A stretch of DNA of 64,000 bases from Thermoproteota archaeon (GTDB taxonomy: Archaea; Thermoproteota; Nitrososphaeria_A; Caldarchaeales; Calditenuaceae). Shown piece by piece: positions 8,990 to 61,813 of this stretch. Under the pieces are notes generated by a model. That model saw only the letters and a list, made by a program, of their open reading frames with translations, was not told the origin of the DNA and did no database searches. A program made the position numbers and the translations under genes. Position 1 is the first letter of the stretch. Every line of letters begins with the position of its first letter. The stretch covers positions 381,068-445,067 of the forward strand of contig JAUQPU010000001.1 of NCBI GenBank assembly GCA_030550235.1. The letters run 5' to 3'.

Positions 8990-9898
8990 GTGGGGTTGGG
9001 AGATAGGCAGGGGCGTCACTGTGTGGGGGCCGGCTTCGCTTTCCAGGTTCCTCTGCATCTGACGGGCTTCTTCTTCCCTGTATATGGCGAGAGGGAGGAG
9101 TTGACGGGCTCCCTCGGAGCTGGCCTCGTTATCGAGCCGGGCTTGAGGTGTATTGTGGAGAGGGGCGAGGGGATATGGTTTGAGGGCAGGCCCATAATCG
9201 GTGGACCGGCCCACAGCATCTATGAGGACCTGGGAGGGGGCTTCTCAATCACTCTCAGCGGACAATGCACCCCCGGAGCGGGCTACGCCTTCAGCGCAGC
9301 CTCAAGTCTAGCTGTTGCAGCCTGCTTCGCGTTATCGGGGAGGCTAGACGTTCTTGATGCCGCGCAGATGGCCCATACATACGAGGTTAGGCACAGGACA
9401 GGCTTAGGAGATGTCTTGGCGATATGGGATGGTTATGGCCTAGTCATGAGGAGGAAGCCAGGCTCGCCTGGAATAGGTGAGGTGGAGAGCATCAAGCTAG
9501 CCGACAAGATAGCAATAATAACCTCGGAGCTTGGAAGACTTCCTACAGAGAACCTCCTCTCAGCCTACCACAACAAGATAGTAGAGACTGGAGTGAGGAT
9601 GTATCAAGAGTTCCTCAGAGAGCCGACTCTCGATAACTTCCTCAGACTCTCAAACAGGTTCTCACGGGAGCTGGGGCTTGTGGATGAGAAGGTTGATAGG
9701 GTCATCAGGCCTCTAGAGCACCATATAATAGGCTGGTACGTGAAGAAGAGGGTGCTAGTGATTGTTGCAGAGGAGGCTGAAGTGGGGGAGGTTTCAGTAA
9801 ATATAGCCGCCTCACTCCCTATTGTTAGGGTCTTCAAGCCGGGTGAGGTTGAGTGGAGGAGATACCTCAAGACCATCCTCGATACGTCTCGCTCATGA
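8990..9898 (+). CDS. Pantoate kinase (archaeal CoA pathway, GHMP-kinase family)
   Basis: 302 aa; GHMP-kinase glycine-rich motif (P.GAGLSSSAA-like: TPGAGYAFSAASSLA); first gene of PoK-PPS-panB-panE cluster. Confidence 0.65.
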   Translation: MGLGDRQGRHCVGAGFAFQVPLHLTGFFFPVYGEREELTGSLGAGLVIEPGLRCIVERGEGIWFEGRPIIGGPAHSIYEDLGGGFSITLSGQCTPGAGYAFSAASSLAVAACFALSGRLDVLDAAQMAHTYEVRHRTGLGDVLAIWDGYGLVMRRKPGSPGIGEVESIKLADKIAIITSELGRLPTENLLSAYHNKIVETGVRMYQEFLREPTLDNFLRLSNRFSRELGLVDEKVDRVIRPLEHHIIGWYVKKRVLVIVAEEAEVGEVSVNIAASLPIVRVFKPGEVEWRRYLKTILDTSRS

Positions 9899-18072: not shown

Positions 18073-19446
18073 TCACTGCGCTATTGTCTCGGCCCTTTGC
18101 TCCCTTTGGGCCCTTAGCCTCTCCCCAGTATATAGCGCGTGACGGTAGACGTGGAGTAGTAGTCCGAACAGGAAAAAGGAGATTCCCAAGTAAAACATAG
18201 AGTGGTTAGGGAGGTTTACTGAGTAGGTGTAGAAGGTTGCCGCCGCTGCGAGAGCTATTAGGACTAGAAGTACCAGTATGATGTTGGCTGATGCCCTAGG
18301 CGAGAGTATGACAGGCTTGGTTGGTGTAGGCCGTGTTGGCCTACGCATTCTTGACATGTAGAGGTATGTAGCATAGAAGCTGGCCAGAGTCACGAGGCCT
18401 ATCGTACCGTAAAAGACCGTGGGCTCTATATAGAGCTGGTCAAAGGCCGTCTCCTTTGTGAAGTCAACGTAGAATCCCCAGACCGTGGTTATGGCTATAA
18501 GCGCGATGCTAGCTATGCCGAGTCCTGTGAAGAATGGCCTGTCTCTCCATGATAGTTTCCTTGACTTGTCGACGAAGGGCACTATCAGGAAAAGTATCAC
18601 GAAGAGCAATGGAAGTAAAGCTCCCGCCGTGAACCTCTCAGTACCTGATCTCAGGAAGGCGTAGATGGCTGTAAGATACCATTCAGGAACCTCCACGATT
18701 CCTCTTGTCAGGTCAAATTTTATACCGAGCTCGGCAGGGAAGAGACCCGCTGAGATGAATATCACACCCACCACCGCAGAGATGATAGGGAAGTCTATGA
18801 CAAGAGCTCGCGGGAAATGGACTGCAGCCAGGAGGAGCATGATCAGTGGGAGTATAAACACGTGGAGGGCGTAGAACCTGATTACAAGGTCGAAGAGGCC
18901 TCCGCCCAGTAGAATGGGGGCTACCGATGGGCCTAGGAGGGGGGCAGAATACGTGAGCCCCATTCCGATGTTCACCGCTAAGAGGGCCCTCTGATTCATT
19001 ATCAGGTTATAGCCAGTATAAGCCTCCAGGACTGTTAAGACGCCTAGAACTATACCAGTGACCCAGAGAACCTCGTTTTTTATCTTATAGCGTCCCGAGA
19101 AATACTGGTAATAAAGGTGTAGGATTGCCAAGAAGACCATAAAATTCGAGGCGTGATAGTGTATATTTCTCATTATGAAGCCGAAGGGGACTTTTTCCTG
19201 GATCTCTTGGACGCTTAGGTATGCGAGCTCGACGTCTGGCCTGTAGTAGAACATTAGGAAGGCTCCTGAGACTCCTAGGATTGCGAAGACAATCGCCGTC
19301 AATGTTCCAAGGAAACCGAACGGGCTCACATACTGCTTCGGCACGGTGAACTTGTACACCACTATGGTTGTTCTCTCAAGCCTATCAACGGTCCACTTCC
19401 ATAGATTACTTATGAGTTCCCGCATAGTTTTAGAGCCGTACGACAT
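18073..19446 (-). CDS. Cytochrome b subunit of a bc-type quinol-oxidising complex (SoxN/cytochrome b6-like)
   Basis: 457 aa polytopic; R.IH...AS..F........H......Y and W..G......AF.GY.L heme-ligand motifs of cytochrome b. Confidence 0.85.
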   Translation of the reverse strand: MSYGSKTMRELISNLWKWTVDRLERTTIVVYKFTVPKQYVSPFGFLGTLTAIVFAILGVSGAFLMFYYRPDVELAYLSVQEIQEKVPFGFIMRNIHYHASNFMVFLAILHLYYQYFSGRYKIKNEVLWVTGIVLGVLTVLEAYTGYNLIMNQRALLAVNIGMGLTYSAPLLGPSVAPILLGGGLFDLVIRFYALHVFILPLIMLLLAAVHFPRALVIDFPIISAVVGVIFISAGLFPAELGIKFDLTRGIVEVPEWYLTAIYAFLRSGTERFTAGALLPLLFVILFLIVPFVDKSRKLSWRDRPFFTGLGIASIALIAITTVWGFYVDFTKETAFDQLYIEPTVFYGTIGLVTLASFYATYLYMSRMRRPTRPTPTKPVILSPRASANIILVLLVLIALAAAATFYTYSVNLPNHSMFYLGISFFLFGLLLHVYRHALYTGERLRAQREQRAETIAQ

Positions 19447-19452
19447 GCCGTC

Positions 19453-19992
19453 TTACACCTTCTTGACTAGGTCCTCTGGCTTGAGAGCATGCCACTCTCT
19501 TCCATAGCCTATCCTACCCTCAATCCCTACCATCCAGATGTCACCATTCTCGTCTACCTCTATTCTCCCCATAGGCAGGGCGTTTGTGGGATATGACTGA
19601 TAGGCGGCGGGGCCGTCCACCGCCACACCATCCTCCTCTCTATAGATCGAGCCGTGACATGGGCAGATCATCTGACCCCTCGTGGGGATATAGGCTGGAA
19701 GACACCAGAGGTGGACACACACCCTACTATAGACTCTTAGCTGACCATCACGCGTCATTATTAGTACATACTGCCTGAACGGGTCATTGTCAACTTTAGA
19801 GTCTCCAGTCGCGGGGTATGAGAAATAGATGTAGCTTCCAGGTGATAGCTCCTTCAAATTGGCTATCTTCTGTCTTCTCACGCTTGTCTCCTCCTTCCGA
19901 TAAAAATAGCCAATCAGGTTGATGAAGGGGGATAACACGGCCACGGCAGCCGCTGTTAAAAAGCCTTGTAAAATCCTTCTCCGTGCCGTCAA
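19453..19992 (-). CDS. Rieske [2Fe-2S] iron-sulfur protein
   Basis: 179 aa; N-terminal TM anchor; CVHLWC (box I) and CPCHGS (box II) Rieske cluster-binding motifs. Confidence 0.85.
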   Translation of the reverse strand: MTARRRILQGFLTAAAVAVLSPFINLIGYFYRKEETSVRRQKIANLKELSPGSYIYFSYPATGDSKVDNDPFRQYVLIMTRDGQLRVYSRVCVHLWCLPAYIPTRGQMICPCHGSIYREEDGVAVDGPAAYQSYPTNALPMGRIEVDENGDIWMVGIEGRIGYGREWHALKPEDLVKKV

Positions 19993-20105
19993 GCCGACTC
20001 TCTCTTCAATAGGCAGGTGCTTGTTCTTAAAGCTAATTGTGGGTCACGAGTTTTTGCCTCACGCTGCATGTTTAAATCTCGATATAGCGTTGAGGTAAAA
20101 GAAGA

Positions 20106-20651
20106 TTGCCCATAAATGCGAGGCTGGCTGTCCTAGTTCTCTCACTTATAATCGCCACATCCACAGCTACACTAGTCTACATAAACATCGTCGCATATCC
20201 TGAGGGCCCTAGTAGGTCGGTATGCACCCCTACCCGGCTAGGTAATTATCTCTTTGAGGCGTATATTTTCCCAGCATCCCCCAAAGTTGGAGAGGAGTTC
20301 CAAATAACCGCGACTATCCAAGGAGCGGAAACAAGTCCAACACCCTTAAACATCACAATGATGTTGCTTAGGCCGGGTAGTCTCTCTGTTATTTTAGGCC
20401 CTGATCCGGCTCCTCTCGGCATAAAGACATGGAATTATAAGATACCCGAGGCTGGTCTTTACGATGTGTACTTTATAGTCACTGACCCGGGGGGCTCTCG
20501 TCAGATAAGGGGCAGGATACAGATATTGTCAGAGAATGAAGCCTCACTCTACTCTATCATAAGGATTTTATCATACGCCTCCCTATGGATAGGTGTACCC
20601 CTTCTCCTAGCTGTAATTGTTTTCTCCAAGATGGGACAGGGGCATGAATAG
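20106..20651 (+). CDS. Hypothetical membrane-anchored extracytoplasmic protein
   Basis: 181 aa; N-terminal signal/TM helix, beta-rich middle, C-terminal TM helix; divergent from bc-complex operon; no metal-ligand motifs recognised. Confidence 0.45.
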   Translation: MPINARLAVLVLSLIIATSTATLVYINIVAYPEGPSRSVCTPTRLGNYLFEAYIFPASPKVGEEFQITATIQGAETSPTPLNITMMLLRPGSLSVILGPDPAPLGIKTWNYKIPEAGLYDVYFIVTDPGGSRQIRGRIQILSENEASLYSIIRILSYASLWIGVPLLLAVIVFSKMGQGHE

Positions 20652-20695: not shown

Positions 20696-21325
20696 ATGCC
20701 GGAGCAGATTATGTCGGTCATAATGTGTGGAGGGAGGGGGAGGAGGATGGGGGGCCGTGAGAAGCCGCTAGTCGAGGTTTTGGGAAAGCCTCTCATCAAA
20801 TACGCTATCGAGGCAGTGGAAGGTTGTCAGGAAATAACCGGCCTCGACTTCGTTACGAGCATAAACACTCCCCTAACAACGAGATTCCTGAGACAGATGG
20901 GTTATGAGCCATTCATAGGCTCCGGCGGGGGTTTTCTAAATGACCTCTCTGAGTACCTAGCGAAAAAAGGTGAGGGCTCATATCTCGTAGTTTCCTGTGA
21001 TGTTCCTACGATGACTACATACCACATACAGGAGGCCCTGAGGATTTCTCAGAGACATGGGGAGGAATATCTGATGTATGTACTACCTCTTGAGAGTGTT
21101 AGGGGGTTATCGAAAAATCCCACAATCATCGAGCGAGGAGGTGTCCACTTCCAACCAGCCGGGCTCAGGCTAATCAGAAAAAAGTCGGTAGGGCCTCAGA
21201 ACCACTCCAACCCAAAGCTGGTGGTTCTACACTTCAGAGAGCTTGGAATGAACGTAAACACGCTCGACGACATCAAGGCCGCAGAGTCTTATCTAAAGGC
21301 GTTGAGAGATTTGGCGAAGAGTTAA
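20696..21325 (+). CDS. MobA-like NTP transferase, CobY-like (adenosylcobinamide-phosphate guanylyltransferase type); likely start at 20711
   Basis: 209 aa; IMCGGRGRRMGG.EKPL motif of CobY/MobA nucleotidyltransferases. Confidence 0.6.
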   Translation: MPEQIMSVIMCGGRGRRMGGREKPLVEVLGKPLIKYAIEAVEGCQEITGLDFVTSINTPLTTRFLRQMGYEPFIGSGGGFLNDLSEYLAKKGEGSYLVVSCDVPTMTTYHIQEALRISQRHGEEYLMYVLPLESVRGLSKNPTIIERGGVHFQPAGLRLIRKKSVGPQNHSNPKLVVLHFRELGMNVNTLDDIKAAESYLKALRDLAKS

Positions 21326-21347
21326 ATCATCAACCAGAGAGAAAAAA

Positions 21348-21986
21348 GTGGATATGGGCTGCGATGCCGAGCAATTTATGCAGATAATTGAGAGTAGGAG
21401 CTCTTCAAAGCTGTTAACGCCCGGACCTGTAGATTTTTCCAAAATATTGCGGGCGCTTATGGTCGCCATATCTTCCCCCAGCGCACACAACTCACAGCCC
21501 TGGCGGCTCGTAATCATAGATGATAGAGAGATTATGGAGAGGCTTCTTGGAGAGATGGCCTCAGAGTGGAGGCGCGACCTAATGGCTGATGGGCTACCTG
21601 ACTGGAAAGTGGATGTGATAATAGAGGAGTCTAAGAAGAGAACTTTGAGGGCATCGATATGGATTCTCGTGTGCTTAACCATGGAGGATATGGACAGGTA
21701 TCCAGACGAGAGGAGGATGAAGTATGAATATGTGATGGCCGTCCAATCCATAGGAGCCTTCATAGAGAACCTACTACTAGCGCTACACGCGCAGGGCTTG
21801 GGGGCCTGCTGGCGCTGCGGCCCACTCTTCGCACCAGATGCTGTTCGTAAAGTCCTAGGAATCCCAAGGCATGTGGAGCCCCAAGCCCTGGTCGAGATCG
21901 CCCACCCCGGCGGGATACGCTCAAAGACTCGAAAAACACTCAAAGAAATTGCTTGGAAGAACAGGTGGGGTGAACCCCTATCATAA
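21348..21986 (+). CDS. Nitroreductase-family flavoprotein (FbiB C-terminal domain/BluB-like)
   Basis: 212 aa; nitroreductase fold motifs (SAHNSQPW...) ; sits between NTP transferase and CofD. Confidence 0.7.
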   Translation: MDMGCDAEQFMQIIESRSSSKLLTPGPVDFSKILRALMVAISSPSAHNSQPWRLVIIDDREIMERLLGEMASEWRRDLMADGLPDWKVDVIIEESKKRTLRASIWILVCLTMEDMDRYPDERRMKYEYVMAVQSIGAFIENLLLALHAQGLGACWRCGPLFAPDAVRKVLGIPRHVEPQALVEIAHPGGIRSKTRKTLKEIAWKNRWGEPLS

Positions 21987-22912
21987 CCATACTCTCAGGA
22001 GGAGTAGGTGGTGCCAGATTTGCAGCGGGAGTCCTTCACGAGTCACATGAGGATGAGGAGATCATAGTCATTGTTAACACTGCTGACGACGACGTCTTCT
22101 ACGGACTCCACGTCTCACCCGACATTGACACAGTACTCTACACCCTCTCGGGCATTGGTGACTGGGCCCGCGGATGGGGCGTGAAGGACGACACATTCAA
22201 CTGTAACGAGATGCTAGGCAGGCTGGGAGTCGAGAACTGGTTCAAGATTGGGGACAAGGACTTAGCGCTGAACCTGCTCAGGACAAGCCTCCTTGCCCAG
22301 GGGTCTAAGCTATCACAGGCAGTCGAGAAACTCAGAAAAGCCTTGGGAGTGAGGGCTAGGATACTGCCCATGACAGATGACCCGGTAAGAACTATAATCG
22401 AGACTGACAAGGGCACGTTACGATTCCAAGAATATTTCGTCAAACATGGATACCAGCTCGAGATAAGGGGAATAAGGTTTGCTGGTATAGATGATTCTGA
22501 ACCACTCCCAGAAGCACTCCAGGCGATTCAGGAGTCAGACGTAGTTGCCATAGCTCCCAGTAACCCCATAGTCAGCATAGGGCCGATACTGGCTCTGAGA
22601 GGAGTGAGAGATGCTATGCGCAGAAGCCGTGCTACGAGACTAGCGGTAAGCCCCATAGTCGGCGGCAGGACAATAAAAGGGCCGGCAGATAAGATGCTTC
22701 AGGCACTTGGGATAGAGCCCACAGCCTATGGAGTCTACAAAATGTACAGGGATATAATCGATGTGATGGTTATCGATAAAGCAGACGAGAAGGAAGCTGA
22801 GAGAATAGAAGCAGAGGGTAAACAATGTTTCGTCCTTAACACCATCATGAATACACTCCAAGATGCACGAACGCTTGCCTCACAGATACTCTCGAAAATT
22901 AGAAGAGAGTGA
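21983..22912 (+). CDS. cofD: 2-phospho-L-lactate transferase CofD (F420 biosynthesis); start codon uncertain (no ATG/GTG/TTG before the conserved LSGGVGGARF motif)
   Basis: Frame +2 translation from 21983 gives ITILSGGVGGARFAAGVL..., the N-terminal glycine-rich signature of CofD/UPF0052; rest of ORF (22181-22912) matches CofD. Confidence 0.7.
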   Translation: MTILSGGVGGARFAAGVLHESHEDEEIIVIVNTADDDVFYGLHVSPDIDTVLYTLSGIGDWARGWGVKDDTFNCNEMLGRLGVENWFKIGDKDLALNLLRTSLLAQGSKLSQAVEKLRKALGVRARILPMTDDPVRTIIETDKGTLRFQEYFVKHGYQLEIRGIRFAGIDDSEPLPEALQAIQESDVVAIAPSNPIVSIGPILALRGVRDAMRRSRATRLAVSPIVGGRTIKGPADKMLQALGIEPTAYGVYKMYRDIIDVMVIDKADEKEAERIEAEGKQCFVLNTIMNTLQDARTLASQILSKIRRE

Positions 22913-23007: not shown

Positions 23008-24090
23008 ATGGATAAGTCTGAGATAGATACACCTGCCCTGATAGTTGATTTAGATGTCATGATGAGGAACATTAGGGAGATGGCTAAGCTTGCGAGGGAG
23101 AGAGATGTGAAACTGAGGCCCCACGTAAAGACCCACAAGGTTCCCGAGATAGCGAAGATACAGGTTGAGGAGGGCGGGAGAGGCATCTGCGTACAGAAGC
23201 TTGGCGAGGCAGAGGTAATGGCGGCAAACGGCCTAAACGATATCTTCATAACGAACGAGGTTGTCGGCCAAGTTAAACTGTCTAGACTTGCGAGGCTAAG
23301 AGAGCAGGTAGACGTGTATGTCGCCGTCGACCATCCTGACAACGTTTCAGACCTGTCTAGAACTATGAGAGAGCAGGGGCTTGAGCTTGGAGTTTACGTG
23401 GATGTGGACTCTGGAATGCATAGGACTGGAGTTCCGCCTGAGAAGGCTCCAGAACTAGCCGAAGCAGTCTCCAAAAGTGAGGGGTTATACCTGGTCGGCA
23501 TAATGGCTTATGAGGGACATGCAGGCGGCCCCATAAATAGGGAAGAGCGGATATCGCTTATAAACAAGGCTATGGAGCAGACACTCCTAGCCGTAAGGCT
23601 CATCCGTCAAAGAGGCATCGAGGTAGGTGAGGTGAGCGTCGGGTCCTCCGCTACAGTCAGATATAGCAGCACATTTGAAGGGATAACCGAAATACAGCCA
23701 GGCATGTATGTTTTTAACGACTATTATCTAGTCGAGAGGGAAGCGGCGACAATCGACACCTGTGCATTACATGTGCTCGCAACTGTAATGAGCAGGCCCT
23801 CTCCGGAGAGAGGAGTTGTAGACGCAGGCTCTAAGACATTCCACTTCGACATGAACAGGTATCCTATAGCCGTAGGAATAGAGGGTGTGGAGATTGTCAA
23901 ATTCTCAGAGGAGCACGGCTGGCTAATACTTAGGGGCCAAGCCCAAGAGAAGATCAAGTTAGGCGACAGACTCGAGTTCATCCCATATCACGTATGCCCC
24001 TGCGTAAACCAATTCGACATACTTTATGGGCTCAGAAGAGACAAAGTAGAGAAAAGTTGGACAATCGCGGCCAGAGGCAAAGTCACCTAA
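23008..24090 (+). CDS. PLP-dependent alanine racemase-fold enzyme, DSD1/D-threonine aldolase family
   Basis: 360 aa; N-terminal alanine-racemase TIM barrel with PLP-lysine motif (HVKTHK) and C-terminal DSD1 domain. Confidence 0.7.
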   Translation: MDKSEIDTPALIVDLDVMMRNIREMAKLARERDVKLRPHVKTHKVPEIAKIQVEEGGRGICVQKLGEAEVMAANGLNDIFITNEVVGQVKLSRLARLREQVDVYVAVDHPDNVSDLSRTMREQGLELGVYVDVDSGMHRTGVPPEKAPELAEAVSKSEGLYLVGIMAYEGHAGGPINREERISLINKAMEQTLLAVRLIRQRGIEVGEVSVGSSATVRYSSTFEGITEIQPGMYVFNDYYLVEREAATIDTCALHVLATVMSRPSPERGVVDAGSKTFHFDMNRYPIAVGIEGVEIVKFSEEHGWLILRGQAQEKIKLGDRLEFIPYHVCPCVNQFDILYGLRRDKVEKSWTIAARGKVT

Positions 24091-24114: not shown

Positions 24115-25110
24115 TCAAATCTCTCTAAAATAGGGAATTATTTCCTTGCTGAAAGCCAATATTGTTCTTTCAGGAGAAGCACTAAAGTCAGTAAAAATAA
24201 GATGTGTAGTTCCAATTTTCCGGTATCTATCAATGACATCAATAAGCCCGTCAGCCTTTCTCGATATGTAATAATTCTGTAGTATCTGTTCATCGGTAAT
24301 CTGCTTGGCTGAATCCTCAATCTTCATGGGATCAGGTTCATTGAAGTTTTCCGCAATCAATGTTCCTGCATGATATTTTCTTATTTTCTTGATAGCGGCT
24401 TTTGCGTCACCTAACGCGCCCTCTATTAGCACAACCTTTTCCATTCTCCTAACATCTTTGTTAGACTCTCTAGCGGCTTGCTCGAAGGCGGGGAAGATAA
24501 AGTCTCTACATCTCTCCACAGTGCCATATGTCATTAGGTGGTCTCCATACATTCCAGCATAAGTAGCAGCCTTGGGGCCCCCTGCCGAGAAAAAGATGGG
24601 AACATGGCCCTTAGGCTTCACGTAAAGAAAAGCCTTAGACATTTTGAAGTATTTTCCATTAAAGTCGAAGGGTATCTGCTCTTTGAATAGACGCCTTATA
24701 AACGAGACAGCTTCTGCCAGCCTCTCGATCCTCTCTTTCCAGGATGGCCAGTAGCCCAGAAATCTCTCCTCGTTGATCGCTTCCCCCGAGCCCACTCCCA
24801 AATAGATACGGCCGGGATACATGGATGATAGCGTCCCCACCGCCTGTGCCACTATTGCTGGATGATAGCGTCCCCCTATTGGTACTGTCACATCAACGCC
24901 AAGCGGTATTCTCCTCGTCCTCTCAGCCGCTGCTGCCAGAACGGACCAGACGAAGAAACTATGCTTGAAAGAGTGATGCCATGGATAGATGTGGTCGCCA
25001 AACCACAATGAATCGAACCCAGCTTTTTCGCATGCTCGTAGAAAAGGCATAGAGTATTTATCATCCATCCAGAATGAGACGTCTAGCCCTAACTTGAACC
25101 TACTAACCAT
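24115..25110 (-). CDS. LLM-class (luciferase-like) flavin/F420-dependent oxidoreductase
   Basis: 331 aa; bacterial-luciferase TIM-barrel family motifs (GLDV......GFDSLWFGDH). Confidence 0.8.
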   Translation of the reverse strand: MVSRFKLGLDVSFWMDDKYSMPFLRACEKAGFDSLWFGDHIYPWHHSFKHSFFVWSVLAAAAERTRRIPLGVDVTVPIGGRYHPAIVAQAVGTLSSMYPGRIYLGVGSGEAINEERFLGYWPSWKERIERLAEAVSFIRRLFKEQIPFDFNGKYFKMSKAFLYVKPKGHVPIFFSAGGPKAATYAGMYGDHLMTYGTVERCRDFIFPAFEQAARESNKDVRRMEKVVLIEGALGDAKAAIKKIRKYHAGTLIAENFNEPDPMKIEDSAKQITDEQILQNYYISRKADGLIDVIDRYRKIGTTHLIFTDFSASPERTILAFSKEIIPYFREI

Positions 25111-25336: not shown

Positions 25337-26422
25337 ATGGTGTGTTTCTTGGATAAGCGTGAATTGGTCTTGAGTTTTAATCCTCCCCTGATAGATCTGC
25401 ACCAGGATATCTCCCTTTATTATGTGCTTGGAGGCTATGGGTTGAAGTTTAAGCCGGAGAGTTTTGAAGTCGACCTACAGGGCAGGCATGGCGATATTCC
25501 GAAATTCAAGCGGGCTAATGTTAGGGTAGTCTTCTCCTCGATAGCCCATATCATCCCCACACAGAATCAATTCAGGCTCAGACAACAGGTTTCTGGATAT
25601 GGCGTGAAAGTAGGGGCTATGAGGATACGTTCACCCACGATGATAACATTGGAGCACATCAAAACATACTATAACTTACTAACTACCCACAGGGATGATT
25701 TAGCACTCTTAGGAGACCCGTCAGACCTTCAACAAGTGGAGAGAAAAGGGAAGACATGGTTTCTGATAGCCATCGAGGGGGCGGAGCCACTTGAGGATAT
25801 CGAGGACCTTGACCTATTCTACATGCTGGGTGTAAGGTCTTTACAGATAACATGGAACTTTGATAACAAGTATGCCGCGACATGCATGTCGAAGAGAGAC
25901 TATGGCTTGACAGGGGATGGCGAGGAGCTTATTGAGAGATGTAATGAGCTTGGCGTAATCATTGACCTAGCACATGCAAGCAAAAAAAGCACAATCGAGG
26001 CATTGGAGTTATCGAGGTTGCCAGCTATTGTGAGTCACGCCAATGCATCCTCTGTCCACCGGCATGTTAGGAATCTTGATGATGATGAGTTGGACGCTTT
26101 GAGAAAGAATGGGGGGGTGGTGGGTGTCACGATGATAGAGCCGACTCTAGGAGGTGCTGCAGATGTGAAGCGAGTGGCTGATCACATTATGTACATTTTT
26201 GAGAATTTTGGCAAGAATTTAGTCGCAATAGGAACAGACTTTTTCGGGATTATGCATGTAGACGAGCCTAAAGGTTTGGAGGATGTTACAAAGTTTGGCA
26301 ACCTATGGTCTGAGCTCCTCTCCCGCGGGCTGACAAGAGAGGATATCGAATTGATCGCGTATAGGAATGCTTTAAGAGTTATTATGGCGAACAGTGCAAG
26401 GTGGAAGCCTAGGATCTTTTAA
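25337..26422 (+). CDS. Membrane dipeptidase, peptidase family M19
   Basis: 361 aa; IDLHQD (IDGHNDLP-like) and DLAHAS motifs of renal dipeptidase family. Confidence 0.7.
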   Translation: MVCFLDKRELVLSFNPPLIDLHQDISLYYVLGGYGLKFKPESFEVDLQGRHGDIPKFKRANVRVVFSSIAHIIPTQNQFRLRQQVSGYGVKVGAMRIRSPTMITLEHIKTYYNLLTTHRDDLALLGDPSDLQQVERKGKTWFLIAIEGAEPLEDIEDLDLFYMLGVRSLQITWNFDNKYAATCMSKRDYGLTGDGEELIERCNELGVIIDLAHASKKSTIEALELSRLPAIVSHANASSVHRHVRNLDDDELDALRKNGGVVGVTMIEPTLGGAADVKRVADHIMYIFENFGKNLVAIGTDFFGIMHVDEPKGLEDVTKFGNLWSELLSRGLTREDIELIAYRNALRVIMANSARWKPRIF

Positions 26423-26559: not shown

Positions 26560-26633
26560 TGGGCCCGGTGGGATTCGAACCCACGACCTACCGGTTATGA
26601 GCCGGCCGCTCCACCTGGCTGAGCTACGGGCCC
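26560..26633 (-). tRNA. tRNA-Met (anticodon CAU), elongator type
   Basis: Reverse complement folds as cloverleaf: acceptor GGGCCCG/CGGGCCC, D arm GCUC-AGCCAGGU-GAGC, anticodon arm GCCGG-CUCAUAA-CCGGU, T arm GUGGG-UUCGAAU-CCCAC; TATA-like box about 30 nt upstream on minus strand. Confidence 0.85.
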
Positions 26634-30507: not shown

Positions 30508-31668
30508 CTAGAGCCCCACACCTATCGTGTTTCCTATACCAGCTATAATAGCTGTACCGTTGGTGGGGACCTTGTCTCTTATCAGCTCTTTAAGTCTATT
30601 CACCACCGTATCTGCTGATTTTACAATACTCTCTCTCATAGGAGTTATCGCCTCAAGTATGGACTGGTATATTACGATGGCGTAGAGTGGAACATTCTTC
30701 TCCTTTGCAAGTGTCTCTATCTTGAACTTGTCAATGCCGGGGCCGCCTATAGCCACGCCTACCCCCTCAGCTATCTTTCCAGTCTCCTCGCCCTCCAGCT
30801 TCAGGGCAGCATCAATAGTGATTATCAGGTCTGGCTTAGTATCCATATCGTAGACGAGCTTCTTCACGGCCTCACCCGGCCGCCCCACAGTCCCTCCAGG
30901 CCCGATAGGCCTAACCACATACACCTTCCTACCCTCAAATTCGACGACATCAAGCCAAGTATCTTTAGCAATCTCTGTCTCAGATATCTTCTTACTCTCC
31001 CTGACAAACTTGGCAGCCGATAATACACCTATCCCATCTCCTATAGGTAGCCCCTTAATGAAAGCATATGAGGCCTGCCTATACGACTCCGCCAGCTCCA
31101 TAATCATAGGAAGCTGTATCTGTATCTGTAGAGCTAGGAAATAATTCGATGTCCTCTTACCCTGGAGATAATAGTGCCTGACAATTCTGTAAATTAGATT
31201 GAGCGCCCTTGCAACCTCCACAAGGTTAGAGAGGCTCTTAACCCGGTGGATATCCGCCTTTGATGCCAGCCTAGCCACACTCTCCTCAAACCTAGCATCA
31301 CCAATCTCAAGTATATGCTCCAGCTTGTAGACTATCCCATTAGGGTCCATAGACTCTGGCGAGATATAGAAGAACTCCAGTAAACCGTCTAGCTCCTTCT
31401 CTATCGCTGGCGAGTCCTTATTGCCGTCAACATACATCTTAATACTGTTTATTGCCTGCTCCCTTACCTCATCCTTAATCTGCTTAAGGATAGCAAGTCT
31501 CTTCTCTATGTATCTGAGGACAAAGGCTAGTTGGGTCCTCTGACCAAAGTAGGGGTAGATGAAGAAGAATGACAGCAAAAAAAGGAACCATACTACCTGT
31601 AATAAGAAAGATAGGGAATCGCCTGTAGTGGGTGTGAGTGTTGCCACGGCTCCTCTTTTAAATATCAC
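30508..31668 (-). CDS. Membrane-anchored hypothetical protein (archaeal DUF1512-like, tentative)
   Basis: 386 aa; single N-terminal TM helix followed by a soluble domain; family assignment from memory only. Confidence 0.45.
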   Translation of the reverse strand: MIFKRGAVATLTPTTGDSLSFLLQVVWFLFLLSFFFIYPYFGQRTQLAFVLRYIEKRLAILKQIKDEVREQAINSIKMYVDGNKDSPAIEKELDGLLEFFYISPESMDPNGIVYKLEHILEIGDARFEESVARLASKADIHRVKSLSNLVEVARALNLIYRIVRHYYLQGKRTSNYFLALQIQIQLPMIMELAESYRQASYAFIKGLPIGDGIGVLSAAKFVRESKKISETEIAKDTWLDVVEFEGRKVYVVRPIGPGGTVGRPGEAVKKLVYDMDTKPDLIITIDAALKLEGEETGKIAEGVGVAIGGPGIDKFKIETLAKEKNVPLYAIVIYQSILEAITPMRESIVKSADTVVNRLKELIRDKVPTNGTAIIAGIGNTIGVGL

Positions 31669-37625: not shown

Positions 37626-38396
37626 TTGGACGACGGTCTAGTGAAATGTTTAGAGCTGGTAAAGAGCTTCGGTGGTGTTAGGGCAGTCGAGGGAGTAAAC
37701 CTCTCGCTACATGCAGGGGTCTTCTCCCTTCTGATAGGCCCCAACGGCAGCGGGAAGAGCACACTAATCAACCTGATCGCTGGCTACTATTACCCTGACA
37801 GTGGGAAAATATTGATGCATGGGAAGGATATTACGCGCCTCAAGCCTCATGAGCGTTTTAGCATTGGGCTGGTTAGGACTTTCCAGACTGCAAGACTCTT
37901 CACGAGCCTAACAGTGCTTGATAACCTCTTGCTGGCTGCTGGGACCACTGAGGGGGAGAATATCCGGATTGCACCATTTAGGCGTAAATGGCTTGTTAGG
38001 GAGATGGAGATGGTCGAGAAGGCCTATCAAATCTTGGAGCTGGTGGGGCTGGAGAAGCTTAGAGACCAGCCTGCAGGGAAGCTTAGCGGAGGCCAGATGA
38101 AGCTCCTCGAGCTTGGCCGCGTAGTCATGAGCGGAGCCAGAGTAATCTTGATGGATGAGCCGACAGCGGGGCTTAACCCCGTGATAGCCGAGTCAGTCCT
38201 ATCCCATATACGCCGCCTTGTAACCGAGCTAGGCCTAGCCACCCTCCTAGTAGAGCATAGACTGGACCTGGCCATGAAGTATGCCGACAAGGTCTTCGCA
38301 ATGTTTAATGGACGGTTGATCGGGGAGGGGTCGCCGGAGGAGGTTCTCACAATCCCCGACGTTGTCGAGAGTTATCTTGGTGAAAGGCTGGCATGA
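37626..38396 (+). CDS. livG: ABC transporter ATP-binding protein (LivG type)
   Basis: 256 aa; Walker A GPNGSGKST, ABC signature LSGGQ, Walker B ILMDEP. Confidence 0.85.
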   Translation: MDDGLVKCLELVKSFGGVRAVEGVNLSLHAGVFSLLIGPNGSGKSTLINLIAGYYYPDSGKILMHGKDITRLKPHERFSIGLVRTFQTARLFTSLTVLDNLLLAAGTTEGENIRIAPFRRKWLVREMEMVEKAYQILELVGLEKLRDQPAGKLSGGQMKLLELGRVVMSGARVILMDEPTAGLNPVIAESVLSHIRRLVTELGLATLLVEHRLDLAMKYADKVFAMFNGRLIGEGSPEEVLTIPDVVESYLGERLA

Positions 38397-44520: not shown

Positions 44521-45495
44521 GTGCCACGAGCTGGTGTAAGATTCGGAATCTCCTTCCCCAACTTCTCGCTAGAATCTGCCGCCAAGATAGCGCGCGATGC
44601 TGAGAAGGCGGGGCTTGATAGCGTGTGGGTCAATGACGACATAGTTGGGGTCTTCCAGAAGGAGACCTTCGACGCCATTCTCTGTATGGCGGAGATGGCT
44701 AGGGCCACTCGTAGGATTAAGATCGGGAGTGCCGTCCTGGCAACATATAGGAGACACCCAGTCAATACTTCGATGTCGCTTGTATCCTTGGACCACATCT
44801 CCGGAGGAAGACTGATAGCTGGTCTAGGAAGCTGCTGCCCTAGCCCAGAGTGGGGATTTCCCCTATCAGGTGACGTGGCTGATAGATTCTTGGAATTCCT
44901 CAACGTCCTGAAGAGACTCCTAACCGGAGGAGCGGTGGAGTTTCAGGGCAGATTCTTCAGCCTAAAGAGCTCGGGCCTAACCGTTAGGCCTAGGCAGAGG
45001 CCCCACCCACCGATATGGGCCGCGGCAAATATAGATAGGACAATAAGGAAAATCGCACAAATAGCTGACGGATGGCTACCGATATGTGTCCCACCACAAA
45101 TCTACACCACGGAGCTTCAGACCCTGCGTGATTCTGCCAAAAGCACAGGGAGAAGGCCGAGGGAGATAGAAGCGGGCCTGATGGCCTTCATTCTGGTGGA
45201 GAAGACGAGGAGTATGGCTCTCAAGAGGGCGATGCCCCTACTTGCTCAAACTGCACTATGGTTTAACGCAGCTAGGATAAGAAAGATGGGCTTCGGGGCA
45301 GTGGGCTCTGTGAGCGATGTAACTCCAGAGATGGTTCAAGCTCTCAACATAGTAGGAACTGTCGAGGAGGCTGCTCAGAGGATAGGGGAGTATATCGATG
45401 CAGGGGCTAGGCACTTAGTCCTACAGCCCCTACCGGTTAAGGAGGCTCGGGAGGCTATTCCACGAATAGTAGATTCGATAAGACAGGCTGTATAG
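44521..45495 (+). CDS. LLM-class (luciferase-like) flavin/F420-dependent oxidoreductase
   Basis: 324 aa; GISFPNF...AGLDSVWVNDD luciferase-like monooxygenase family N-terminus. Confidence 0.8.
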   Translation: MPRAGVRFGISFPNFSLESAAKIARDAEKAGLDSVWVNDDIVGVFQKETFDAILCMAEMARATRRIKIGSAVLATYRRHPVNTSMSLVSLDHISGGRLIAGLGSCCPSPEWGFPLSGDVADRFLEFLNVLKRLLTGGAVEFQGRFFSLKSSGLTVRPRQRPHPPIWAAANIDRTIRKIAQIADGWLPICVPPQIYTTELQTLRDSAKSTGRRPREIEAGLMAFILVEKTRSMALKRAMPLLAQTALWFNAARIRKMGFGAVGSVSDVTPEMVQALNIVGTVEEAAQRIGEYIDAGARHLVLQPLPVKEAREAIPRIVDSIRQAV

Positions 45496-60712: not shown

Positions 60713-61813
60713 TTATGGAGAGCTTTCATATTCACGCTCGGTTAATTCTGAGAACTTTCTTGGGTTATAGGTTGATGGGCCTGAAGCGGGTGGGGCTGTA
60801 TTGAGTAGGAGCCCCCTCTCTAATACTTCCTCCCAGCTCAGTGTGTTAGTGGCGACTAATACCTCGATGGGTAGGAGCATTGGTTTTGGGAACCGTGCTT
60901 GGTCCTCAATGCTCAGCCGCGGGCAGGCAGTGTTGACGTAGGCATCGTAGGTGAAGTCAGCTAGGTTATTTACATCTATCTCGTCTGACATGATTATGCT
61001 TGCCTCTCGCCCGCTATCTATAATTATTTTTTTGAGCCTTTGTGCTAGCCCCATCATGTATTGGCCCGGCTTTCTGCTCACGAGTATCGCGACTCTCCGC
61101 GCCTCTCTGAATTTTTGAATCATGTAATACCTGGTGGCCAGTATTCTTTTGGCCCTCTCGCTCATCCATTCGACCCGTTGGGCGTGGGGGTCAACCATGA
61201 GCGTCGGTTTCTGGGATGTGAGGGCGATACCAAGAGCATGGAAGACTGAGCCCACGACAAGGAAGCTGTCAACCATCGATTCTATACTCTTCAACGATGT
61301 GTAGTCACATCCTAGGACCTGCCCCCTGTGAGCTAGGTGACCGCCGGGTTCACCTACCAAGACGGTGTATCCCATGGCTCTAAGATCGTTCGTGAACTGG
61401 GTTAGGTGGTTGAGCCACTGGACGCTAAGCCCCACGCCTACCTTCCTATACCCGTTTTTCTCCAACTCCGTCGATATTGACGAGATAAGGTCCCTTAGTG
61501 GCTTGTAGTCTCTGTAGCGCGCCTCGACGTAGAGTACTGGGAGCTCGGTGTGAGAGAGAAATGGCGCGTGTCCCACGTGTATGATGGCATCGGCCCCCAC
61601 CCTCCTAGCCTCTTCAATAGCTATGTCGCATCCGCCCCACGTCGGGCTTGATGAGATGATGGCCTCAACTCCAGTCTGGCGTACCATCCTATCCAGCTGC
61701 TCAGCCATGCCTCTAAGGCCTAGAGGGGATTGAATAAGTACCCGGCGGGGAGACACCATCCTCAACCATTCGAAGATCTCCGCACTGTCGAGCTCTACAG
61801 ACAGATTAACCAC
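60713..61813 (-). CDS. dph2: 2-(3-amino-3-carboxypropyl)histidine synthase (diphthamide biosynthesis, radical-SAM-like Dph2)
   Basis: 366 aa; three-domain Dph2 architecture with conserved cysteines (GGCDIA..., LGCDY, TACPRL). Confidence 0.75.
   Translation of the reverse strand: MVNLSVELDSAEIFEWLRMVSPRRVLIQSPLGLRGMAEQLDRMVRQTGVEAIISSSPTWGGCDIAIEEARRVGADAIIHVGHAPFLSHTELPVLYVEARYRDYKPLRDLISSISTELEKNGYRKVGVGLSVQWLNHLTQFTNDLRAMGYTVLVGEPGGHLAHRGQVLGCDYTSLKSIESMVDSFLVVGSVFHALGIALTSQKPTLMVDPHAQRVEWMSERAKRILATRYYMIQKFREARRVAILVSRKPGQYMMGLAQRLKKIIIDSGREASIIMSDEIDVNNLADFTYDAYVNTACPRLSIEDQARFPKPMLLPIEVLVATNTLSWEEVLERGLLLNTAPPASGPSTYNPRKFSELTEREYESSP

Follow-up and report, generated by a model that had tools for sequence, protein, structure and literature searches.

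A cofD gene without a canonical start codon, conserved in Calditenuaceae archaea beside genes for an FbiE-like nitroreductase and a CobY-like transferase

Translation does not always begin at AUG, GUG or UUG. The bacterial genes infC and pcnB start at the near-cognate codon AUU, and ATT, ATC and ATA are all listed in NCBI translation table 11. Coupling of adjacent genes is also well described: at overlapping gene pairs, termination-reinitiation has been shown experimentally in Haloferax and Escherichia coli (Huber et al. 2019, Nat Commun, PMC6728339), and it is often assisted by a Shine-Dalgarno (SD) sequence (PMC7531240; PMC6728339; reviewed in PMC12548453). Here we describe an archaeal cofD gene at which the two may be combined. 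It is the last of three co-directional genes (gene 1, a nitroreductase gene and cofD, positions 20696-22912) in a 64,000-nt stretch of contig JAUQPU010000001.1 (GCA_030550235.1) from a member of the Calditenuaceae, a hot-spring family within the Aigarchaeota (Nitrososphaerota). We refer to this whole stretch as the window, and all positions are window positions unless a locus is named. We infer from their sequences that the three genes form an operon module dedicated to intermediate steps in the making of coenzyme F420, and the substrates assigned to all three enzymes are predictions of the same kind.

The enzymes of such a module have described counterparts. FbiE and FbiB's C-terminal domain are dehydro-F420-0 reductases that depend on flavin mononucleotide, FMN (Bashiri 2019, PMC6450877; PMC8498797). 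Stand-alone reductases of the FbiE type are known from Thermomicrobium roseum and also from some archaeal genomes (PMC8498797; PMC6450877), and Bashiri et al. 2019 reported that the archaeal dehydro-F420-0 reductase could not be found near cofE (PMC6450877). In Chloroflexota the equivalent operon has the order CofE-NTR-CofD-CofC, where NTR is a nitroreductase and CofC is of the canonical PF01983 type. Complete operons of this kind lie at L043:2545-5592 (Thermosporothrix hazakensis) and L050:2068-5571 (Anaerolineales). Non-AUG/GUG/UUG starts, coupling at NTGA overlaps, stand-alone FbiE and CofD are therefore already known kinds of things, and the NCBI pipeline already places non-canonical starts at the gene studied here.

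With the nitroreductase gene taken as frame 0, the cofD open reading frame (ORF) of the window occupies the -1 frame, and the two overlap. After an in-frame TGA at 21971-73, the cofD frame reads ACC CCT ATC (21980) ATA (21983) ACC ATA (21989) CTC TCA GGA GGA GTA GGT GGT, which translates as T P I I T I L S G G V G G. Between this stop and the glycine-rich motif, ATG, GTG and TTG are all absent; the earliest such codon after the TGA is GTG 22181, 67 codons into the protein. The TAA of the nitroreductase gene (21984-86) shares two bases with ATA 21983, and the same-strand spacing from this stop is an overlap of -7 for ATC 21980 and of -4, in the form ATAA, for ATA 21983. A sequence-only reading that preceded this work had given the TGA, the TAA, the frame and the CofD N-terminus exactly as we find them, and the lack of a canonical start that it reported holds as well. 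Absence of a start among only seven codons would not be improbable by chance alone. It becomes significant because the upstream stop forces the N-terminus to lie within those seven codons, and because of a census of 94 cofD loci: a canonical start is missing from the interval between upstream stop and glycine motif in 14 of them and in not one of the remaining 80, and the 14 are exactly the members of one clade.

That clade consists of the window species and its relatives in the Calditenuaceae. Within the window species, the junction is identical in four independent assemblies (1-3 mismatches to the window per 8.6 kb in three of them and 91, or ~1%, in the fourth). A scan of GTDB species representatives, together with look-ups of individual proteins, yielded seven further species-level lineages (L001-L006 and L087, with near-duplicates L085, L086 and L088), among them Ca. 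Calditenuaceae HR02 and SKYB103. Common to all eight species are TGGGGTGA, six variable bases and then AT[C/T] ATA AC[C/A] AT[A/T]. The codon at the start site is ATC in seven of the eight, window included, and ATT in L005. Pairwise CofD identity among these species is 67-86%, and synonymous sites are saturated (proportion of synonymous differences, pS, 0.69). The single-base indel or assembly error that the sequence-only reading had considered is thereby refuted, since the junction is identical in the four assemblies and the same arrangement recurs in seven species with saturated synonymous sites.

Despite having no canonical start, the first 67 codons evolve as coding sequence, and the purifying selection on them is strong. 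Across the eight species, the proportion of nonsynonymous differences (pN) in codons 1-67 is 0.097, which gives a pN/pS of 0.14; the ratio is 0.10 over the first 20 codons and 0.24 over the rest of cofD. The low ratio over the start-less 67 codons therefore means that this region is translated in the cofD frame. In the alignment, clean third-position periodicity is seen from the ATA/ACN codons onward, whereas the codon pair that separates the TGA from ATC shows conservation in the nitroreductase frame only, not in the cofD frame. These patterns point to ATC or ATA as the place where coding in the cofD frame begins.

When the window was scanned for further genes preceded by long start-less leaders, the cases returned were explained by overlap with a neighboring gene or by short intergenic stretches. 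Two genes, at 30508-31668 and 60713-61813 (both - strand), have 36-39 stop-free in-frame intergenic codons without a canonical start before their first ATG, GTG or TTG, which is probably due to chance.

The cofD gene (Fo phospholactyl/enolpyruvyl transferase, CofD/FbiA) extends from 21980 to 22912 on the + strand, with 310 codons counted from ATC and a TGA stop at 22910-12. Its product matches TIGR01819 with 325.3 bits (cut-off 257.45) over model positions 1-299 of 301, and PF01933 with E 2e-54, so that the CofD homology proposed in the sequence-only reading is supported by hidden Markov models (HMMs). In the PDB it matches M. mazei CofD (3C3D, 231 bits) and M. smegmatis FbiA (6UVX, 189 bits). 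The N-terminal glycine-rich strand-loop ([IV]L[SA]GG[VT]G) is present at the very start of the protein, as IITILSGGVGGARF at 21980-22021, and it aligns from residues 1-3 onward of both structures. The initiator Met of 3C3D and that of 6UVX align no more than one codon from ATC 21980, while ATA 21983 is the alignment point of TIGR01819 model position 1 and of Met1 of 3C3D. Membership of the CofD family is solid on these grounds, and the predicted activity is phospholactyl or enolpyruvyl transfer from LPPG (lactyl-2-diphospho-5'-guanosine) or EPPG (its enolpyruvyl counterpart) to Fo.

Gene calls at this N-terminus are inconsistent. NCBI records of the window species contain a 310-aa CofD starting at ATC 21980, and across these genomes NCBI records call cofD from ATC (310-311 aa) or from the third Ile codon, ATA 21989 (307 aa). 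Automatic callers shorten the CofD of the clade to 231-305 aa (P0004, P0005, P0006, P0018, P0021, P0025, P0115). Pipelines thus mostly lose the conserved N-terminal glycine motif or choose inconsistent starts in this clade, and F420 synthesis may therefore be mis-scored in pathway reconstructions of Aigarchaeota. A CofD homolog of 409 aa in JGI data (P0046) departs from the usual length in the other direction, being ~100 aa longer; it is 56% identical to the query over 94% of the query.

Sister Aigarchaeota, whose CofD is 54-62% identical, retain the nitroreductase-cofD pair, whose genes share four nucleotides (NTGA) at the homologous codon, and the nitroreductase stops on that TGA. The overlap is ATGA in L082 and L083, TTGA in L081, GTGA in L090 and CTGA in L084 and L089. 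In the last two, no stop separates cofD from an in-frame GTG located 5-6 codons upstream (L084:1315-1335; L089:6001-6025), and this GTG is used by gene callers. Across Aigarchaeota, the start codon of the coupled junction takes six forms, ATG, TTG, GTG, CTG, ATC and ATT, a variety that we have not found described. Among the other prokaryotic loci, 24 carry ATG, TTG or GTG as the aligned codon, the rest have a canonical start 1-17 codons upstream, and L044 encodes a nitroreductase-CofD fusion.

Sister lineages have ATGA, TTGA or GTGA at this site, and a single change therefore removed both the ATG of cofD and the TGA stop of the nitroreductase gene. Starting from an ancestral ATGA overlap, one substitution at the third base (G to C, or to T in L005) converted the cofD ATG to ATC or ATT and, in the same step, the nitroreductase TGA to a sense codon, TCA or TTA. 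The nitroreductase consequently ends one codon later, on the TAA made by ATA-A. In the sequence-only reading, a canonical start at the same position in orthologs was taken to imply a sequencing error in the window. Sister lineages do carry ATG, TTG or GTG at that codon, but no error is implied, as the whole Calditenuaceae clade shares the non-canonical codon. We have not found a description of such an ATG-to-ATC/ATT change in an archaeon with clade-wide conservation and clear polarity.

In a neighbor-joining tree, the ATC/ATT lineages all fall in one clade, and L084 seems to be nested inside it. In L084, which is represented by a single 2.3-kb contig, the upstream TGA is now GGA, the GTG has been opened and ATC has drifted to CTG. 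Such a pattern would be expected of an ATC that is held in place only for as long as it serves for initiation, although from this one contig it is no more than suggestive.

An SD-like sequence, GGGGTGA, is located at 21967..21973 (+ strand) in the 3' end of the nitroreductase gene, and the TGA closing the cofD frame makes up its final three bases. The spacing from its end is 6 nt to ATC 21980 and 9 nt to ATA 21983. The surrounding TGGGGTGA is invariant in all eight species of the clade, and this extends to the third position of the Gly codon GGT, where a change would be synonymous. The conserved 3' end of archaeal 16S rRNA is AUCACCUCCU (PMC7531240), with which GGGGTGA could form a 7-bp duplex containing one G-U pair. 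The same signal precedes canonical starts elsewhere in the window: GGTGA stands 6 nt before the starts of operon-internal genes at 9853, 55136 and 55930, and 9 nt before the start at 38393. In L081, the sister lineage with a TTG start, the SD register is identical.

The SD-like sequence also forms part of a conserved three-codon mini-ORF in the cofD frame, GTG GGG TGA (21965-21973), which is a product of the nitroreductase codons (R/M/L/V)-W-G-E. G 21965 is the third base of a variable codon and yet is invariant in the clade; it possibly belongs to an extended SD (AGGTG).

From these features, we consider it likely that cofD is initiated at ATC 21980 or ATA 21983, with help from the SD-like sequence and coupled to the nitroreductase gene by termination-reinitiation. 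A full-length, separate CofD would then still be made. Met-tRNAi would initiate at the near-cognate AUC 21980 (AUU in L005), or possibly at the adjacent AUA 21983, which would restore the -4 geometry in the form ATAA. Two aids would be available to it: the invariant SD-like GGGGTGA at a distance of 6 nt upstream, and the ribosome that completes the nitroreductase and stops 1-7 nt away. The most likely initiation codon is ATC (21980..21982, + strand), the homolog of the codon at which sister lineages start with ATG, TTG or GTG; the alternative is ATA (21983..21985, + strand), which is invariant in the clade and overlaps the nitroreductase stop as ATAA in the same geometry as the ancestral ATGA. 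Homology and SD spacing favour ATC over ATA. That cofD depends on translation of the nitroreductase gene is something we infer from this arrangement.

Compared with described ATGA or NTGA overlapping pairs, the locus is similar in having co-directional operon genes, a downstream start within a few nt of the upstream stop and an SD in the upstream gene, and its ancestral state is a textbook ATGA overlap. It differs in that the downstream start is ATC/ATT (-7) or ATA (-4, ATAA) instead of NTG, and in that the coupling is deduced from the layout of the genes. Like the starts of infC and pcnB, the codon is a third-position near-cognate of AUG that is conserved across species in a functional gene. 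Unlike them, it is found in an archaeal host with aIF-based initiation, it is mainly AUC, and it has no autoregulatory logic known here.

Several points weigh against this interpretation. The codon used may be ATC 21980, ATA 21983 or ATA 21989, as the choice is made on the basis of sequence. A review of archaeal translation initiation names AUG, GUG and UUG alone as archaeal starts (PMC7531240), and our literature search returned no experimentally verified archaeal AUC or AUU start. The C at the third base of ATC is also the second base of the nitroreductase Ser codon TCA, and its conservation may reflect the nitroreductase frame. Finally, L084, although nested in the clade, has a usable GTG five codons upstream and has lost ATC, which shows that other solutions occur. 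Even so, the locus offers a clean example from nature, with a known direction of change (ATGA to ATCATAA), of what would be a conserved archaeal near-cognate start, and it could be used to test whether termination-reinitiation relaxes start-codon stringency.

Of the three explanations put forward in the sequence-only reading, initiation at a rare ATA or ATC codon with coupling is thus supported and the indel is refuted; the third was a programmed frameshift. A programmed -1 frameshift near the end of the nitroreductase gene would produce a nitroreductase-CofD fusion and make separate initiation of cofD unnecessary. The overlap of the two genes and the -1 frame of cofD would permit it, and natural nitroreductase-CofD fusions in Anaerolineae indicate that joining these two consecutive enzymes is viable. 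However, the interval in which the frameshift could take place is only three codons long, from the cofD-frame TGA to the nitroreductase TAA. Its codons vary among species (CCC CTA, CCG ATA, CCG TTA, CCT CTA, ACC CTA, TCC ATA, CCG GTA) and in no case amount to an X XXY YYZ heptamer, and the last sense codon, TCA or TTA, is unable to re-pair in the -1 frame. There is no conserved structure downstream (RNAalifold consensus -6.18 kcal/mol with a covariation term of +0.05; z-score of the single-sequence minimum free energy -0.32). The 25-70 aa linker of the natural fusions is missing, and the sister lineages with ATGA clearly make two proteins. With no conserved slippery sequence and no conserved downstream structure, a frameshift fusion is not supported, and we regard it as improbable.

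Two further possibilities would spare the gene a near-cognate start. In one, translation begins at the conserved in-frame GTG 21965 (GTG GGG TGA) and reads through the TGA at 21971-73, adding a short and variable N-terminal extension. The conservation of this GTG would fit, as would the fact that the equivalent frame is open in L084 and L089, where gene callers use that GTG. On the other hand, TGA is a normal stop here, as it ends cofD itself and the nitroreductases of the sister lineages, which also speaks against its use as a sense codon. In the cofD frame, the two codons after the TGA lack conservation, GTG 21965 has no conserved SD upstream, and the TGA is followed by A or G, which are not contexts known to favour readthrough. 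This explanation is very improbable in our view. The other possibility is that the locus reflects an artefact or decay, that is, an assembly error, a pseudogene or a truncated CofD made from an internal GTG or ATG, as the truncated products called by several pipelines might suggest. We find it hardly credible, because the junction is the same in four assemblies and kept in eight species, and the HMM match is full length and above the cut-off. Moreover, pN/pS is 0.10-0.14 in an N-terminus that would supposedly be untranslated and that bears the ILSGGVGG motif found at the very start of CofD models. A pseudogene or a truncated CofD in particular is ruled out by this low N-terminal pN/pS together with the full-length TIGR01819 match. 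Initiation at ATC or ATA with termination-reinitiation therefore remains our preferred reading.

The nitroreductase gene overlaps cofD in all Aigarchaeota loci, which links it to the F420 genes. In the window, it extends to 21986 on the + strand from either ATG 21354 (210 aa, the NCBI call; 21354..21986) or GTG 21348, with its TAA at 21984-86, and it encodes a stand-alone protein of the nitroreductase superfamily (PF00881, E 4e-25). The best specific models are PRK13294 and the FbiB C-terminal domain TIGR03553 (123.9 bits, cut-off 249.55), and 4XOM, a structure of the FbiB C-terminal domain, is the best PDB match (E 6e-23). The protein shares 38% identity with the nitroreductase of the Thermosporothrix CofE-NTR-CofD-CofC operon. 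We therefore describe the protein as FbiE-like and as a putative dehydro-F420-0 reductase. It is similar to FbiE and the FbiB C-terminal domain in its nitroreductase fold and its best matches, it stands alone as does FbiE of T. roseum, and it lies beside cofD as in Chloroflexota. It is unlike them in being archaeal, in being linked to cofD rather than cofE, and in scoring under the TIGR03553 cut-off. The remark in the sequence-only reading that the actinobacterial nitroreductase domain is fused to the F420 glutamyl ligase (FbiB) is correct.

A different fusion exists in Anaerolineae. In metagenome-assembled genome M17 (L044:2888-4516) and in P0121-P0124, an FbiE-like nitroreductase and CofD are encoded by a single ORF of 536-585 aa (PF00881 and PF01933, with a linker of 25-70 aa), an architecture distinct from the CofE-nitroreductase fusion FbiB. 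These fusions have the same two domains in the same order as the genes of the window, which confirms the functional link. They differ from the window in being single ORFs with a linker, whereas here there are two genes in different frames with stop codons between them.

Gene 1 (20696..21325, + strand, 209 aa) encodes a CobY-like protein, predicted to be a MobA-fold nucleoside triphosphate (guanylyl)transferase (PF12804, E 2e-15) and a candidate functional replacement for CofC/FbiD. Its best PDB matches are the CobY structures 3RSB and 2MZB, whether judged by sequence (E 2e-15), by family profile (100 bits) or by fold. Its AlphaFold2 model has a pLDDT of 92.7, and the top PDB matches of this model in Foldseek are again 3RSB and 2MZB (E 6e-15, TM 0.68-0.78). 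The top PDB matches by sequence profile or Foldseek include no structure of CofC or FbiD. On the CofC model TIGR03552, gene 1 scores 12.7 bits (cut-off 105), PF01983 is absent at E <= 0.01, and a profile built from canonical CofC proteins only gives 12.8 bits as compared to 186-240 for its members. The claim in the sequence-only reading that gene 1 resembles CobY rather than canonical CofC is thus borne out by profiles, PDB matches and fold.

Compared to CobY of M. jannaschii (MJ1117, 3RSB), its best match in sequence and fold, gene 1 has 27-30% identity, a TM of 0.78, the GGxGxRMG nucleotide-binding motif and, as predicted, the chemistry of phosphate-monoester guanylylation. It differs from CobY in remaining under the equivalog cut-offs, with 91.6 bits on TIGR00454 (cut-off 174.7) and 62.3 on the CobY model NF045495 (cut-off 250), and scores under the cut-offs of the CobY models hold for all 12 members of the gene-1 family. 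It differs also in belonging to a narrow, Aigarchaeota-specific subfamily: among 1.84 billion representatives, two 50%-identity clusters score >300 bits, and the score then falls from 324 to 152 bits. With CofC/FbiD (PF01983), gene 1 shares the superfamily fold, the reaction type and a place in the operon that is held by CofC in Chloroflexota; it is unlike them in scoring 11-32 bits on CofC profiles, where true members score 186-240.

The genomic context of gene 1 is constant. In every Aigarchaeota locus examined it lies directly upstream of nitroreductase-cofD, contiguous or overlapping. The neighborhood of the trio in the window clade and its closest sisters (L081-L083) contains cytochrome b and Rieske genes, and in L089 and L090 the trio sits in an unrelated one, with TBP and HTH_10 upstream and MoCF_biosynth downstream. 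Within 3-6 kb, at the loci with Pfam gene tables, the neighbors are cytochrome b, Rieske, nitroreductase, cofD and others, so that the conserved neighbors are F420 genes and not cobS or cbiB, although no scan aimed at CobS/CbiB was made in the window. Outside Aigarchaeota, canonical CofC is the next gene downstream of cofD at 20 loci, and CofE adjoins cofD at 39. Local profiles found no canonical CofC in any Aigarchaeota locus or in the 64-kb window, and no cofE elsewhere in the window. We have not found described the constant association of a CobY-like, not CofC-like, transferase with FbiE-cofD.

CobY and CofC catalyze the same type of reaction, the guanylylation of a phosphate monoester, and it is therefore plausible that a CobY paralogue has been recruited as guanylyltransferase for F420. 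Alternatively, gene 1 could be a genuine adenosylcobinamide-phosphate guanylyltransferase for cobamide salvage, with canonical CofC encoded elsewhere in the genome and the position of gene 1 without meaning for F420. CobY is, after all, its best match by sequence, profile and fold, the gene-1 ortholog P0177 is named CobY by JGI, and the distant relatives of gene 1 include a CobS-CobY fusion. In addition, Ca. Calditenuis aerorheumensis is reported to have both cobalamin salvage, which needs a CobY, and F420 pathways (PMC4681859). Against a role in cobamide salvage are the scores far under the CobY equivalog cut-offs and the gap that separates the narrow gene-1 subfamily from other CobY-like proteins. 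Gene 1 also adjoins nitroreductase-cofD in all Aigarchaeota loci examined, two unrelated neighborhoods included, and the canonical CofC that adjoins cofD in 20 loci of other groups does so in no Aigarchaeota locus and is absent from the 64-kb window. On balance, we lean towards a role for gene 1 in F420 synthesis, and we hold cobamide salvage to be a considerable though not favoured possibility.

Distant relatives of gene 1 occur as fusions: P0202 and P0198 (NTP_transf_3 with an Asn_synthase-like, PP-loop ATPase-like domain), P0255 (NTP_transf_3 with an ECF S-component) and P0327 (CobS with NTP_transf_3). A CobY-like domain fused to CofD was not found among these distant relatives. A literature search found no paper linking CobY to F420, and the sequence upstream of gene 1 showed no clear conservation of an archaeal TATA box.

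With an FbiE-type reductase attached to cofD, the phosphoenolpyruvate (PEP)/dehydro-F420-0 route is the natural reading of the module (PMC6450877, PMC8498797). Throughout an entire archaeal phylum, an FbiE-like gene is joined to cofD and accompanied by the gene for a CobY-like rather than a CofC-like enzyme. These genes are specific candidates for a PEP-dependent route in archaea and for F420 guanylyltransferases of a new class. It could be speculated that Calditenuaceae and related Aigarchaeota use this route with a CobY-derived guanylyltransferase that has displaced CofC and, at the same time, that Calditenuaceae express cofD solely by termination-reinitiation at AUC or AUU. As a conjunction of the two parts, this proposal is rather doubtful. 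If true, it would be a natural demonstration that tight coupling can release an archaeal gene from having to start with AUG, GUG or UUG, and the lability of the start across six codons points in the same direction.

The window also encodes possible users of the cofactor. A luciferase-like monooxygenase/oxidoreductase, which may be an F420-dependent enzyme, is encoded at 24115..25110 on the - strand (PF00296, E 3e-45), and a second luciferase-like enzyme at 44521..45495 on the + strand (PF00296, E 1e-53). Both had been recognized in the sequence-only reading, and both are confirmed as PF00296 members. The first is flanked by two + strand genes, one of the D-serine dehydratase / alanine racemase-N family (23008-24090) and one for an M19 membrane dipeptidase (25337-26422).

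The only tRNA gene of the window, at 26560-26633 on the - strand, has a CAT anticodon and could encode the initiator, the elongator Met or the Ile2 tRNA, which reads AUA by means of agmatidine. Upstream of the trio, 18073-20651 contains divergently oriented genes for cytochrome b (457 aa) and a Rieske protein (179 aa), followed by a gene for a 181-aa protein without a Pfam match. This arrangement is kept with the trio in loci of the Calditenuaceae type and is not seen in L089 or L090.

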